Assembly: GCA_035457005.1 (NCBI GenBank)
Contig: DATICB010000011.1
Location: 4,098 to 68,097 of the forward strand
Direction of reading: 5' to 3'
DNA length: 64,000 nucleotides
Source of the DNA: Patescibacteria group bacterium
GTDB taxonomy: Bacteria; Patescibacteriota; Microgenomatia; Levybacterales; UBA12049
The position numbers were made by a program, and so were the translations under genes. Positions 4,879 through 56,470 of this stretch are shown one piece after another. The notes beneath the pieces are model-generated. The model did not search any database. It was not told where the DNA came from and saw only the letters and a program-made list of their open reading frames with translations. The number at the start of each line of letters is the position of its first letter. The first letter of the stretch is position 1.

Positions 4879-6123
4879 ATGAAAACAATAAAAGTATCAA
4901 TACAGGATGAGCACACACTCGTGCTTCAAGAGATCGGACAAAAAGGTGACTTAATCGATTTAAAGTCAATTCATGAAGTTGATATTGATAAATCTACAAT
5001 TGAGAATGTAATAAATTCAATTAAAAGGGATGAGTTTAATGCTCAACTAGAGAAAGAGACAAAAACTATTGAGACCAAAATGGAATTGCAAGCAAAATTG
5101 AAAGAGAAGGAAATTATTGACCGCGCAAAAGATGCCCTTTCTAAAAAAGATCAAGAAATTTTAACATTAAATTCCAAAATTGAAGTTATTGCAAAACAAA
5201 CGGAATCAGATACTAAATTGAAAGATCTTGAAGAAAAACAAAAAATTATGGATGATTACCGTCAAAAATTAAGTGAAAAAGATACCGAAATTAGTGAAAT
5301 AAAGCACAAAGGTGAATTAGAGGTTGAAAAGTTAAATGAAAAACTTAGGTCTAGCGAGACAGCATTAGTTTCATTAAAAGAAATGAGATCGAAAATGAGT
5401 ACCAAGATGATTGGCGAATCCTTAGAGACACATTGTGAAAATGAATTTAATAAAATTAGGCCATTTGCTTTCCCTAACGCAAAATTTGGCAAAGACAATA
5501 CAGTCTCAGGAACCGGCTCAAAAGGCGATTATATTTACCGAGAGTCTGATGAAGATGGGAATGAAATTCTATCAATCATGTTTGAGATGAAAAATGAAGA
5601 AGATGGTACTGCAACAAAACACAAGAATAAAGATTTTTTTAAAGAACTTGACAAGGACAGGAAAGAAAAAGATTGCGAATTTGCCGTATTGGTTAGCTTA
5701 CTTGAAAAAGATAATGAATATTATGATGACATAGTTACTGTTCACGAATATTCAAACATGTACTCCATTCGACCCCAACATTTCATTACAACAATCGGTT
5801 TTTTACGCCAAGGAAACATAAAATCACAAGAGCTACGACGTCAGATTCAAATTTTAAAAAATCAAAATATAGATGTTACTAACTTTGAAAATAACATGAA
5901 CGCATTTAAAGATGCTTTCGCACGCAACTATAACCTTGCCTCGGATCAATTTGCTAATGCAATAAAGGAAATTGATAATACAATTGACCATTTAAACAAA
6001 GTGAAAGAAAATCTATTGAAGTCTGATAATAACTTGCGACTCGCCAATAATAAGGCGATTGATTTATCAATAAAAAAATTGACAGCAAATAGTCCGAGCG
6101 TAGCAAAAGCATTTGAAAAATAG
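4879..6123 (+). CDS. DUF2130-like coiled-coil protein with a C-terminal globular domain
   Basis: Long K/E-rich coiled-coil N-terminal half followed by a conserved C-terminal region (HCENEFNKIRPFAFPNAKFGKDNTV...DYIYRE). Confidence 0.5.
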   Translation: MKTIKVSIQDEHTLVLQEIGQKGDLIDLKSIHEVDIDKSTIENVINSIKRDEFNAQLEKETKTIETKMELQAKLKEKEIIDRAKDALSKKDQEILTLNSKIEVIAKQTESDTKLKDLEEKQKIMDDYRQKLSEKDTEISEIKHKGELEVEKLNEKLRSSETALVSLKEMRSKMSTKMIGESLETHCENEFNKIRPFAFPNAKFGKDNTVSGTGSKGDYIYRESDEDGNEILSIMFEMKNEEDGTATKHKNKDFFKELDKDRKEKDCEFAVLVSLLEKDNEYYDDIVTVHEYSNMYSIRPQHFITTIGFLRQGNIKSQELRRQIQILKNQNIDVTNFENNMNAFKDAFARNYNLASDQFANAIKEIDNTIDHLNKVKENLLKSDNNLRLANNKAIDLSIKKLTANSPSVAKAFEK

Positions 6124-19461: not shown

Positions 19462-19547
19462 TTTTGCTTCAAACCTCAATTGTTTTCTTTATTACTATAC
19501 CTCTCTTGACTTCTTGAAATGATTATGAGTACGCTGATTGTAGAGAA

Positions 19548-19799
19548 ATGTATTTTGTATACGTTCTACAAAGTATGAAGGATGATAATTTTTATACAGG
19601 TTTTTCAGACAATTTGAAAAGAAGATTGAGCAAGCATAATACAGGTCTTGTCACTGCTACAAAACATAGACTTCCATTAAAACTTATTTACTACGAATTT
19701 TGTCTCAACAAAACAGATGCACTCCATAGGGAGATCTACTTAAAAACATCTTGGGGTAAAAAATACATTAAAAACAGATTATCAAATTATCTCATGTAG
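19548..19799 (+). CDS. GIY-YIG nuclease-family mini-protein
   Basis: YFVYVLQS...FYTGFSDNLKRRLSKHN GIY-YIG core; 83 aa. Confidence 0.75.
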   Translation: MYFVYVLQSMKDDNFYTGFSDNLKRRLSKHNTGLVTATKHRLPLKLIYYEFCLNKTDALHREIYLKTSWGKKYIKNRLSNYLM

Positions 19800-34272: not shown

Positions 34273-34291
34273 TTTTGCGCGCCCGGAGGGA
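34273..34291 (-). repeat. Degenerate partial copy (16 of 18 nt) of the 3' end of tRNA-Arg(TCT)
   Basis: gcgcgcccggagggattcc here versus gcgctcccggagggactcg at 34660-34678. Confidence 0.5.
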
Positions 34292-34307
34292 TTCCCTTCG
34301 GTTCATT

Positions 34308-34628
34308 TCATTCACTCAGGGTAAACTTCTCATCTCTCATGAGAGCTTCAACAAACTCAGTGCAAGTATTAATTCCAAGTATACCATCTATTAACATTTG
34401 TTTCTTTGCGTGACTCCAGCCTTTTAATTGTTGTTCTCTCTTTGCTGCTTGGTACTTATTAACGTACTTTTCTGCATACTTAAATCTAAGATCAGAAAAT
34501 TTTTTTGTGAACAAAGATTTTTTATTTTTGTGTTTTTTAAACCGTGGAATAATATCATCTGTTATCCCAACATAAAACATTTTCTGATCGCAAAGAAGAA
34601 TGTAAGTAAACCAAGCAGAACGACTCAT
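34308..34628 (-). CDS. GIY-YIG nuclease-family mini-protein
   Basis: WFTYILLCDQKMFYVGITDDIIPRFKKH GIY-YIG core. Confidence 0.7.
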   Translation of the reverse strand: MSRSAWFTYILLCDQKMFYVGITDDIIPRFKKHKNKKSLFTKKFSDLRFKYAEKYVNKYQAAKREQQLKGWSHAKKQMLIDGILGINTCTEFVEALMRDEKFTLSE

Positions 34629-34659
34629 TGTAATTGCTTGCACTGAGCTTGCCGAAGTG

Positions 34660-34733
34660 CGCTCCCGGAGGGACTCGAACCCCCGACCACATCGTTAGAA
34701 CCGATATGCTCTATCCAGCTGAGCTACGGGAGC
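34660..34733 (-). tRNA. tRNA-Arg (anticodon TCT)
   Basis: Acceptor gctcccg/cgggagc, anticodon loop guUCUaa, T-arm ggggg-ttcgagt-ccctc. Confidence 0.8.
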
Positions 34734-34809: not shown

Positions 34810-34894
34810 ACTTCGTCGTTTCACTCCTCAGTGTAAACACGTTTGACGCTAAGTATAAGTGCTTGCTACTTCCTTGTCAAAACAAGCGAATGTG

Positions 34895-34968
34895 TCGGGG
34901 ACAGAAGACTCGAACTTCCGACCTCACGGTCCCAAACCGCGCGCTCTAGCCAACTGAGCTAGTCCCCG
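34895..34968 (-). tRNA. tRNA-Pro (anticodon TGG)
   Basis: Acceptor cggggac/gtccccg, anticodon loop uuUGGga, discriminator A. Confidence 0.85.
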
Positions 34969-35243
34969 TTCTGCAAGGCAGAACTTATCTCTTTACCATA
35001 TTCTGCCAAAATTTTTCTTAATTTATATCCAACTCCTGATTTCAGGAATTTTTCTCTTTTGTCTGTACAAGTTTTACAATACAGTTGTTCAAAATACACA
35101 ATCTTCCAAGGTCTATACGCCTTTGTAAATTTTGATAGGCCACTATTGTGCTCCTTTAGTCTAACCTGAACACTTTTTATTGTTTGTCCAACGTACGTCT
35201 TATTTTTCTTTGTTAAACTTTGCAGGATGTATACTTTGTACAC
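34959..35243 (-). CDS. GIY-YIG nuclease-family mini-protein (its stop overlaps the 5' end of tRNA-Pro by 10 nt)
   Basis: YKVYILQSLTKKNKTYVGQTIKSVQVRLKEHN GIY-YIG core. Confidence 0.7.
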   Translation of the reverse strand: MYKVYILQSLTKKNKTYVGQTIKSVQVRLKEHNSGLSKFTKAYRPWKIVYFEQLYCKTCTDKREKFLKSGVGYKLRKILAEYGKEISSALQNGD

Positions 35244-35298
35244 ATCTATAGTTTAGCAAATCTTCCTCCTGAGAAAATTCTCCTCTGGAGAAGTGCCG

Positions 35299-35317
35299 AA
35301 GGAGGGAATCGGTCACA
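35299..35317 (-). repeat. Partial direct copy of the tRNA-Leu 3' end (T-loop/acceptor, gtgccgaaggagggaatcg)
   Basis: Identical 18-19 nt at 35439-35457 inside the intact tRNA-Leu. Confidence 0.55.
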
Positions 35318-35435
35318 ACTCGCCTTTGGCGGTCGCGACCCCGCCTCCTTCATCTTGCCTTCGGCAGATTCAGTCCGGCTTTCGATTCCACTGCTCTCAG
35401 CACGAATATTTCTGTCCAACAGACAAAAATATTCC

Positions 35436-35521
35436 TGGTGCCGAAGGAGGGAATCGAACCCACACGACATTGCTGTCAAGGGCTCTTAAGGCCCCCGTGT
35501 ATACCATTTCACCACTTCGGC
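35436..35521 (-). tRNA. tRNA-Leu (anticodon TAA), class II with long variable arm, CCA encoded
   Basis: Acceptor gccgaag/cttcggc, anticodon loop cuUAAga, long variable arm, 3' ...ggcacca. Confidence 0.8.
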
Positions 35522-53949: not shown

Positions 53950-54201
53950 TTATAAACCATTAATCAAAGCTTCTTTTTTGCTTTTAGGCAATTGTTTTAT
54001 TTCCCATTCGCGCTTTAAAGCTTCACTTTTTGTTGCACATTCCTCTGTATACACAAGTGCAAAACTATTAAATGCTTTTAAATATTTTGCTGATTCATAA
54101 TTTTTCTTTCTGTGCTGAGTTAGTCTTTTTTCCAAATCATTTGTTTGACCCGTGTAGAGCGTATTTGCAGATGTCCGAAGAATATAGACAGTATATGTCA
54201 T
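53950..54201 (-). CDS. GIY-YIG nuclease-family mini-protein
   Basis: TYTVYILRTSANTLYTGQTNDLEKRLTQH core. Confidence 0.7.
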   Translation of the reverse strand: MTYTVYILRTSANTLYTGQTNDLEKRLTQHRKKNYESAKYLKAFNSFALVYTEECATKSEALKREWEIKQLPKSKKEALINGL

Positions 54202-54235
54202 ATACTCAGTATACAACTACTACAACCACAATTGA

Positions 54236-55966: not shown

Positions 55967-56072
55967 ATTTTTAGTATGAGAAACTACTGCTGTTGTGTCA
56001 ATGAGCAGAGGAGAAAGATAAACGGTCCAAAAGGCAGACTAGAGATATTCTGCTTAATTCATTTTTTCTGTG

Positions 56073-56143
56073 CTGGAAGGCCTGGATTCGAACCAGAATA
56101 AACAGATCCAAAGTCTGTTGTCCTACCATTAGACGACCTTCCA
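56073..56143 (-). tRNA. tRNA-Gln (anticodon TTG), U1:A72, G73
   Basis: Acceptor uggaagg/ccuucca, anticodon loop cuUUGga, T-arm ctgg-ttcgaat-ccag. Confidence 0.8.
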
Positions 56144-56147
56144 ATAT

Positions 56148-56390
56148 TTAATCTTTTAACAACACCTTAAGTTTATTACCACCTTTATATGATTTCAATT
56201 CTATTTCCCTTAATCGCGCTTTTTTATAATTTTCAAACTCTTCTGTATAAACGAGAGAAAATGGCTTTCTCTTTTTCGTAATTGAAACTCCACCCTTATT
56301 GTGTTTCTTTAAACGGTTCTGAATATCTTTAGTTATTCCGATATAATAACCATTGTCTAATTTGCTTTGGATTACATAAACCCAAATCAT
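56148..56390 (-). CDS. GIY-YIG nuclease-family mini-protein, 4 nt from the tRNA-Gln 5' end
   Basis: IWVYVIQSKLDNGYYIGITKDIQNRLKKHN core. Confidence 0.7.
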   Translation of the reverse strand: MIWVYVIQSKLDNGYYIGITKDIQNRLKKHNKGGVSITKKRKPFSLVYTEEFENYKKARLREIELKSYKGGNKLKVLLKD

Positions 56391-56397
56391 ACAAAAA

Positions 56398-56470
56398 AGT
56401 CTGTTGTCCTATTTACTCCGCTTAGCGGAGCCATTACCCCGCTCAGCGGGGCGAGGACGACCTTCCAATA
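56398..56470 (-). repeat. Degenerate copy of the 5' half of tRNA-Gln; the D-loop is replaced by a 45-nt insert with two GC hairpins
   Basis: aagtctgttgtcct...gacgaccttccaata matches 56111-56146; insert ctccgcttagcggag / ccccgctcagcgggg. Confidence 0.55.

Follow-up and report, generated by a model that had tools for sequence, protein, structure and literature searches.

A GIY-YIG nuclease gene between a tRNA gene and a copy of its 3' end: a probable small selfish element in the candidate phyla radiation

What is a gene for a nuclease of 106 amino acids (aa) doing between an intact tRNA gene and a partial copy of the 3' end of that same tRNA? The question is raised by a 64,000-nucleotide (nt) stretch of a Patescibacteria group bacterium (contig DATICB010000011.1, positions 4,098 to 68,097; hereafter the window), in which a GIY-YIG open reading frame (ORF) stands behind tRNA-Arg(TCT) on the minus strand. 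An earlier, sequence-only reading of this locus suggested a mobile unit reduced to a nuclease gene and targeting tRNA genes, a proposal supported by the comparative data presented here, with units of this kind found at 18 anticodon classes. According to our results, these units very probably constitute a family of mobile selfish elements, and the region 34276-34676, which comprises the window unit with its repeats, is probably one copy of such small elements, located at the 3' ends of tRNA genes in the candidate phyla radiation (CPR). Coordinates without a label refer to the window, and loci fetched for comparison are designated by L numbers.

Architecture of the unit and of its family

The tRNA-Arg(TCT) gene, placed by ARAGORN at 34659-34733 on the minus strand, is the last gene of a co-oriented cluster comprising tRNA-Leu(TAA), tRNA-Pro, tRNA-Gly and tRNA-Arg. 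The location of the GIY-YIG ORF directly behind it was borne out by ARAGORN and Rfam for the tRNA and by the protein family match (PF01541, E=3e-12; 106 aa), and the order of intact tRNA, cargo and partial 3' repeat had been read correctly, the cargo measuring 363 bp between the repeat copies (34295-34657). The partial tRNA copy also exists, although at 34276-34294 and not at 34273-34291 as formerly placed, and it is identical to the left copy at 17/19 positions. The features of the locus, in gene order, are the following:

34660-34733, minus: tRNA-Arg(TCT), intact, the target (host) gene (Rfam tRNA, 60.6 bits)
34658-34676, minus: left 19-nt repeat copy GAGTCCCTCCGGGAGCGCA, within the working tRNA (positions 57-73 plus CA)
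34636-34657, minus: 5' terminal module CTTCGGCAAGCTCAGTGCAAGC, near-invariant across the family, beginning directly after N73-CA
34308-34628, minus: GIY-YIG nuclease ORF, intact, 106 aa, UPF0213/Slx1-like (Pfam)
34346-34366, minus: internal complement of the 5' module, CTTGCACTGAGTTTGTTGAAG, encoding the conserved C-terminal motif NTCTEFVEA
34295-34326, minus: 3' terminal module GTTTACCCTGAG-(13 nt)-CCGAAGG, overlapping the stop codon
34276-34294, minus: right 19-nt repeat copy GAATCCCTCCGGGCGCGCA, the displaced or duplicated tRNA 3' end

On the gene strand the tRNA ends in ...GGGGGTTC/GAGTCCCTCCGGGAGCG-CA, where the slash marks the boundary of the repeat, and is followed at once by the 5' module and, after a leader of 7 nt, by the ORF. 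The right copy lines up with the last bases of the tRNA, beginning at T-loop position 57 and running through the discriminator N73 to the following CA. When the 19-mer was searched with up to 3 mismatches across the 64-kb window, only the right copy and the two tRNA-Arg genes present there gave a match, while 100 dinucleotide shuffles yielded 0 matches and the chance expectation in the window is zero; the concern that a similarity of 18 nt might not be significant is dispelled by these figures.

Two features had escaped the sequence-only reading, namely the conserved terminal modules and a hairpin readable as the terminator of the convergent sortase gene (plus strand, 34283-34301; GC-rich, with a T-rich tail). 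The two modules form imperfect inverted repeats, their CTTCGG/CCGAAG termini being perfect over 6 bp and the extended pairing reaching about 13/15, and the termini CTTCGG...CCGAAG sit exactly at the repeat junctions. Furthermore, the internal complement (34346-34366) pairs with the 5' module over 21 bp, all three DNA mismatches being G.U in the mRNA strand, and this leader:ORF helix is present in both the minimum free energy and the centroid RNA folds (z=-3.97). In Pfam and NCBIfam searches of the unit the sole family match was GIY-YIG, with no DDE, HUH, serine or tyrosine recombinase or transposase; Rfam held no family for the modules, and exact-sequence look-ups of the window GIY-YIG protein (from two start codons) and of the sortase returned no recorded entry.

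The same architecture was found in other CPR genomes, where the sequence-only reading had suggested looking for GIY-YIG genes flanked by a tRNA and a partial tRNA repeat. In the 16 close genomic relatives compared, 25-64 nt separate the gene from a preceding co-oriented tRNA (Glu, Asn, Gln, His and others) or from a tRNA split by a group I intron. The full set of tRNA, both modules and a repeat corresponding to the local tRNA is present in 12/16; this repeat, which follows the 3' module, reproduces the local tRNA from position 57 to N73-C(A) and is often perfect over 16-20 nt. The general unit spans about 330-440 bp, with an ORF of roughly 95-105 aa and a short leader, is always co-oriented with the tRNA, and showed no consistent promoter of its own. 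Its layout is tRNA C56/G57...N73-CA, CTTCGGCAAGCTCAGTGCAAGC, leader, ORF, GTTTACCCTGAG..CCGAAG(G), second G57...N73-C(A), so that one junction lies between positions 56 and 57 and the other after N73-CA.

A wider sample was obtained by an exact search of metagenome contigs with 21 nt of the 5' module, which gave more than 120 stretches and, over all loci, at least 156 module instances among the matches listed. Of these listed modules, 56/156 directly follow a tRNA called by ARAGORN, in at least 18 anticodon classes, all co-oriented and with the module after N73-CA; 67 listed instances have a T-loop-like motif at the correct distance. The 20 nt preceding the module recur downstream with at least 18/20 identity in 26/118 testable cases, vs 0/590 controls made of flanks paired from different loci, and the recurrence always lies 327-436 nt downstream and always after CCGAAG. 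Perfect or near-perfect repeats are the rule, with 0-1 mismatch in 28/38. Some host tRNAs (L004 4699-4906, L005 4500-4878, L099 4799-5177) were missed by ARAGORN because group I introns interrupt them at these positions. Among module-free tRNAs in the CPR loci fetched and the window, 35/72 have N73-CA and only 16 have CCA, a C usually following the discriminator; N73-CA is thus native to these tRNA genes, and the repeat therefore consists of target sequence.

Across the family, mismatches in the internal helix are biased to the mRNA strand (G.T 97 vs A.C 28), whereas those in the terminal repeats show no strand bias (G.T 48 vs A.C 45), which suggests that the termini act as DNA-level signals and that the internal pairing is an RNA feature. 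Since solo modules are common, the 5' module was also considered as a pre-existing landing pad. The repeat brackets the 5' module, the ORF and the 3' module together, which speaks against this idea and for a 5' module within the insert; the L130/L135 pair described below fits either view. Likewise, the unit is not readily taken as a tRNA intervening sequence spliced from the T-loop to the downstream fragment, the upstream tRNA being complete and no splicing or ligation signals being evident.

The 5' module was also observed in other settings. In L113, L114, L185, L196, L103, L131 (two copies) and L200 it stands behind a conserved non-tRNA sequence (...GGTTCTAAC..CGTCC...GGAGCA), and in some loci this GGTTCTAAC...GGAGCA flank is part of a conserved intergenic stretch of about 130 nt without a match in Rfam. 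Tandem arrays of the 23-24-nt 5' module occur in L092 (1-170, at least 7), L108 (3123-3191, 3) and L126 (1020-1063, 2).

Gain, loss and decay at conserved sites

The comparison of related genomes revealed both occupied and empty sites, as the sequence-only reading had proposed to verify. L081 shares with the window the neighbourhood of surface-protein, 326-aa-protein, sortase, tRNA-Arg(TCT) and tRNA-Gly genes, its sortase being 70% identical, and its tRNA-Arg(TCT) is followed by unrelated sequence, that is, by an empty site; a candidate excision footprint behind this tRNA (GGAATC...TGGGA) was not significant in an ungapped test. In L083 the same site is filled, with an ORF 72-74% identical and a perfect 20-nt repeat. 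Elsewhere, L130 and L135 have the same tRNA-Glu and the same right flank, and differ by exactly one 404-bp unit. These empty and filled sites, together with the one-unit difference, constitute a presence/absence polymorphism at a conserved site.

Decay and reiteration are also evident. ORF-less miniatures of about 90-110 bp, with both modules and the repeat, were found in L125 (at tRNA-Arg(TCT)), L155, L183 and L190. Repeats lacking a GIY-YIG gene, which the sequence-only reading had held would count against a mobile unit, do exist therefore, and they are deletion derivatives because they still carry both element ends. Other decayed copies are 3'-truncated and keep only the first ORF codons, or the 5' module alone. 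Second modules behind the right-hand repeats (L126, L130, L098, L178) point to tandem insertions, and the stretch fetched for L185 contains two family members no more than about 6 kb apart. The truncated ORFs, ORF-less miniatures and solo ends are those of a cycle of invasion, degeneration and loss.

Two pairs of loci (L088/L110 and L124/L196) were considered as cases of transposition to non-tRNA sites. Both pairs are 100% identical from 5 nt upstream of the module onward and have unrelated left flanks, but the identical right flank extends over more than 500-800 nt, and they are probably the product of recombination at dispersed modules or assembly variants.

The protein, the route of insertion and its alternatives

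The PF01541 match covers residues 6-76 of the protein (47.1 bits vs a cut-off of 22.6). We found 323 homologues, mostly in Microgenomates and Parcubacteria-type metagenome-assembled genomes, with 57-74% identity among intact ORFs across CPR classes; non-CPR GIY-YIG relatives that were fetched (L020-L080) almost never adjoin tRNAs. The protein is under strong purifying selection, and Y9, Y19, G21, R29, H33, E65 and N87 are invariant in 33 homologues; by analogy with I-TevI and UvrC, we assign catalytic roles to these residues. The nearest solved structures are those of the UPF0213 proteins BH0048 and EF2693 (1ZG2, E=2.9e-10; 1YWL, E=4.4e-8), followed by the Slx1 nuclease domain. An AlphaFold2 model (mean predicted local distance difference test score 84.6) displays the order beta-beta-alpha-beta-alpha-alpha plus a C-terminal helix, and Foldseek matched it to UPF0213, Slx1 and, weakly, the N-terminal domain of UvrC. 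The protein had no match in PHROG, and PADLOC gave only marginal, motif-level matches (E >= 5e-4), with no credible assignment to a defence system. Several database homologues bear the spurious N-terminal extensions HFGKLSAS, LRQAQCK and GIRIPVGS, because the 5' module and a tRNA T-arm were translated.

How such a unit might move can be outlined as follows. The GIY-YIG protein, as a homing-type endonuclease, would break unoccupied tRNA genes in or near the conserved T-loop and 3' acceptor, and repair would copy the element from an occupied allele into the broken gene, homology being provided on the left by the tRNA body and on the right by the 19-nt fragment. One repeat copy would then complete a working tRNA and the other would stay behind as the displaced 3' end, so that the host tRNA would be kept and homology outside the tRNA gene would not be needed. 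The element would probably owe its expression to transcription reading on from the tRNA promoter and its release to processing of the tRNA 3' end, and the 21-bp helix between the leader and the 3' part of the ORF would probably modulate its mRNA. In this scheme the nuclease is what we infer to drive mobility.

This homing or 3'-end-replacement route is our tentative choice, held with slightly more doubt than conviction. It would explain why no outside homology is needed, as well as three observations on the family. The element proteins group according to tRNA type. Where the right copy is imperfect, it looks more like another genuine variant of that tRNA than like a product of random decay (window, p=0.006; L004, p=0.001; L141, p=0.017); for instance, the right copy of the window has 18/19 identity to the 3' end of tRNA-Arg(TCT) in L125, more than to its own tRNA (p about 0.006 if decay were random). 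Finally, those elements whose left flank is not a tRNA nevertheless terminate in a tRNA-like fragment. A variant that we regard as possible but rather doubtful is a homology-addressed unit, in which an Slx1-like, catalytic-domain nuclease would cut the T-loop box and the carried 19-nt fragment would set the tRNA target; with target choice residing in nucleic acid, it would be understandable that a protein of about 100 aa serves 18 or more targets. Some right copies have a donor-derived or ancestral look, and the right repeat may have been carried from a donor or made at insertion, the sequences being compatible with either route.

Several points weigh against the interpretation as a homing selfish element. 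About half of the 5' modules stand without an ORF, and the module may exist or act independently. The window and L083 copies, at an orthologous site, diverge to a host-like degree (72% identity for the GIY-YIG protein, 81% for the carboxypeptidase), which would fit long vertical residence as well as repeated homing, and near-identical copies at different tRNAs of one genome were not seen within the fetched stretches. The occupied allele keeps an intact T-loop, so that immunity to re-cutting is not accounted for, and tandem copies suggest re-insertion. Cutting of DNA, including tRNA genes, by the 106-aa protein is a presumed activity, and the predicted structure is a bare GIY-YIG core plus one helix (88-104), without a separate DNA-binding domain. 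Furthermore, the native and the added repeat copy are not separable by sequence alone, and the 5' module had no match in IMG/VR viral contigs, which therefore point to no vector.

The main rival explanation is a transposon-like insertion, for which the nuclease would nick the bottom strand at 56/57 and, 19 bp away, the top strand after N73-CA; an excised or copied element with its inverted-repeat ends would be joined in, and gap filling would duplicate 19 bp. The junction-exact terminal inverted repeats CTTCGG...CCGAAG, the perfect or near-perfect repeats of most intact copies at many tRNA types (the 28/38 cited above), the tandem insertions and the ORF-less derivatives resembling miniature inverted-repeat transposable elements (MITEs) speak for it, as does the lack of strand bias among terminal mismatches (48 vs 45), expected for a DNA signal. 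We nevertheless consider it unlikely, given that a 19-bp duplication is unusually long, that the proteins cluster by tRNA type rather than mixing, that imperfect right copies look like foreign tRNA variants, and that the right end of elements outside tRNA loci is still tRNA-like; moreover, GIY-YIG enzymes are to our knowledge hydrolytic nucleases with no strand-transfer activity. A domesticated, vertically inherited tRNA-linked host gene, whose protein would serve the cell, for instance in repair or in maintenance of tRNA loci, and whose modules and fragment would be RNA-processing or stability signals of the co-transcript, would accord with the strict co-orientation, the lack of a consistent promoter, the conserved 21-bp leader:ORF helix with mismatches biased to the mRNA strand, the protein's being under strong purifying selection, and the fact that the window and L083 copies, at their orthologous site, have diverged about as far as host genes. 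It is made quite improbable by the patchy presence (an empty orthologous site and a one-unit difference) and by traits typical of selfish elements, namely at least 18 host tRNAs, truncated and ORF-less relics, tandem copies and five GIY-YIG mini-ORFs in 64 kb.

Intact tRNA, cargo and partial 3' repeat is also the classic attachment-site (att) footprint, so the locus could be conceived as the remnant of an integrase island at the tRNA-Arg 3' end, with attL, attR and an unrelated GIY-YIG gene. Such an origin is very improbable: neither the window unit nor dozens of related units contain an integrase gene or pseudogene, the unit is only 330-440 bp long with conserved ends abutting the repeats, and the same cargo occurs at 18 tRNA classes, each time with a repeat matching the local tRNA. 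Hardly credible at all is a coincidence in which the 19-mer is merely a GC-rich hairpin that terminates the convergent sortase gene and happens to resemble a tRNA T-arm and acceptor; the plus-strand hairpin at 34283-34301 with its T-rich tail does score as terminator-like, but the repeat has zero chance expectation in the window, and the fact that the corresponding fragment co-varies elsewhere with the upstream tRNA, whatever the neighbouring genes, effectively refutes this explanation. The hairpin may be secondarily used as the sortase terminator.

Related units and known systems

A second GIY-YIG family is present in the window, with an 80-aa ORF at 56151-56408 (minus) within 56072-56468. 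In the window and in 4/4 homologue contexts (L204, L205, L207, L209) it lies 4-6 nt upstream of an intact tRNA-Gln(TTG). It is preceded by a copy of the tRNA 5' half, comprising TTGGAAGGTCGTC (56456-56468) and GACAACAGACTTT (56396-56408) with a conserved hairpin in place of the D-loop; this copy agrees for the most part with the local tRNA, exactly in L205 and L209 but less well in L204 and, as regards the acceptor, in L207. The tRNA-Gln arrangement is, as judged from its layout, the mirror image of the tRNA-Arg element. No NCBIfam model matched either GIY-YIG ORF.

At the tRNA-Leu(TAA) of the window, a 126-bp ORF-less insert (minus, 35293-35456 with its repeats) lies between perfect 19-nt copies of the tRNA 3' end (35438-35456 and 35293-35311) and opens with a hairpin after the encoded CCA; a similar insert of about 150 bp is found at tRNA-Leu(TAA) in L203 (8464-8720). 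In a set of 84 module-free tRNAs, those followed within 200 nt by a partial copy of their own 3' end were also in excess.

Further GIY-YIG genes and tRNA spacers were recorded in the same neighbourhood. A third mini-ORF of 94 aa (34959-35243, minus; Pfam E=7e-12) fills the space from the second tRNA-Leu 3' copy to tRNA-Pro, and the stop codon of this ORF overlaps the first bases of tRNA-Pro; no downstream repeat was found for it. The 84-bp spacer between tRNA-Pro and tRNA-Gly (34810-34893, minus), which contains N73-CA, CATTCGCTTG...AGTAGCAAGC and GTTTACACTGAG...CGACGAAGT, looks like an ORF-less relic of the element, and it also harbours the region's best promoter-like site (TTGACA-17-TATACT, 34852-34880). 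Two more GIY-YIG mini-ORFs are located away from tRNAs (19518-19796, plus; 53953-54216, minus), for a total of five in 64 kb. In L083, a 75-aa GIY-YIG gene (5647-5874) occupies the interval between tRNA-Gly and tRNA-Arg, which measures 3 nt in the window and 20 nt in L081.

Under the homology-addressed variant, the tRNA-Arg element and the mirror-image tRNA-Gln family might together represent a broad class of endonuclease elements, not described so far, that are nested at tRNA genes of CPR bacteria, use the tRNA promoters and may be regulated by an mRNA panhandle. If our interpretation holds, the tRNA-Arg element would be among the smallest autonomous mobile elements known in bacteria, with about 350 bp and one nuclease of about 100 aa, and would exemplify a selfish gene that colonises essential, highly conserved tRNA genes without harm by keeping a spare copy of the 19 displaced bases. 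This would provide a function for part of the widespread, uncharacterised UPF0213/COG2827 GIY-YIG proteins, explain the abundance of small GIY-YIG genes in streamlined CPR genomes (five in the window), and account for odd tRNA-fragment repeats, the mis-called HFGKLSAS and LRQAQCK extensions and the dispersed CTTCGGCAAGCTCAG repeats in CPR assemblies. As to practical use, a very small nuclease that cuts tRNA genes at a defined site, or an element targeted by a short carried homology, could serve as a tool, and filled and empty sites could mark strains in metagenomes.

In full-text searches of the published literature we found no description of tRNA-flanking GIY-YIG units with these modules and repeats. 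The UPF0213 (BH0048, EF2693) and Slx1 domains, which gave the best matches, are single-domain GIY-YIG/URI nucleases; Slx1 cuts branched or hairpin-like DNA, while the UPF0213 structures have been assigned neither a function nor mobility. Integrase islands and prophages at tRNA 3' ends share with the CPR unit the intact tRNA, the element and the direct repeat, the tRNA being restored by sequence beside the element; they differ in that the CPR unit has no tyrosine or serine recombinase, measures 0.35 kb vs many kb, and belongs to one family found at many tRNAs. Insertion sequences and MITEs, in turn, also display inverted and direct repeats, one small ORF, ORF-less miniatures, solo ends and tandem copies, whereas the CPR unit lacks a DDE, HUH or serine transposase and has a 19-bp target-specific repeat and a strict orientation to the tRNA.

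Phage GIY-YIG homing endonucleases (the T4 Seg enzymes, with SegB in a tRNA cluster, and I-TevI) also sit by conserved or tRNA genes and act by break-induced conversion. I-TevI reportedly cuts about 23-25 bp from its insertion site, which resembles the distance of 19 bp from the T-loop to the insertion point of the CPR unit. Seg and Tev enzymes are proteins of about 200-250 aa with a separate DNA-binding domain, and have no flanking direct repeats or terminal inverted repeats. The CPR unit differs from them, with a 5' module without a match in IMG/VR and a protein without a match in PHROG. SegB is reported to be associated with tRNA loci (PMC13096335). Within the CPR, small GIY-YIG ORFs have been described in non-intron insertions of rRNA genes (PMC11270868); the host group is the same, but these insertions lie inside rRNA genes, and no architecture of repeats and modules was reported for them. 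GIY-YIG genes are also found among transferred genes of Patescibacteria (PMC12455944).

Fungal mitochondria provide the closest known parallel and the model for the homing route favoured here: mobile endonuclease ORFs (mORFs) in Allomyces macrogynus atp6 and in Glomus atp6, atp9, cox2 and nad3 bring a foreign 3' end of the gene with them on insertion, and the native 3' end is displaced (PMC3630166). Both systems display the succession of gene body, replacement 3' end, endonuclease ORF (GIY-YIG in Glomus atp9) and displaced 3' end, and would share a functional host gene, an element expressed with it and horizontal spread (PMC3630166). The mORFs differ in that they occupy mitochondrial protein genes, encode ORFs of about 140-340 codons (Table 2 of PMC3630166) and lack conserved inverted-repeat ends, whereas the CPR unit is found at bacterial chromosomal tRNA genes, with a fixed 19-nt duplication, a catalytic domain only, conserved modules and miniatures. 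Taken together, these likenesses are consistent with a homing-type endonuclease element that would preserve its target by partial duplication, and whose unusual traits would be its tRNA targets, its size of about 350 bp, its catalytic-only protein, its inverted ends and its MITE-like offspring.

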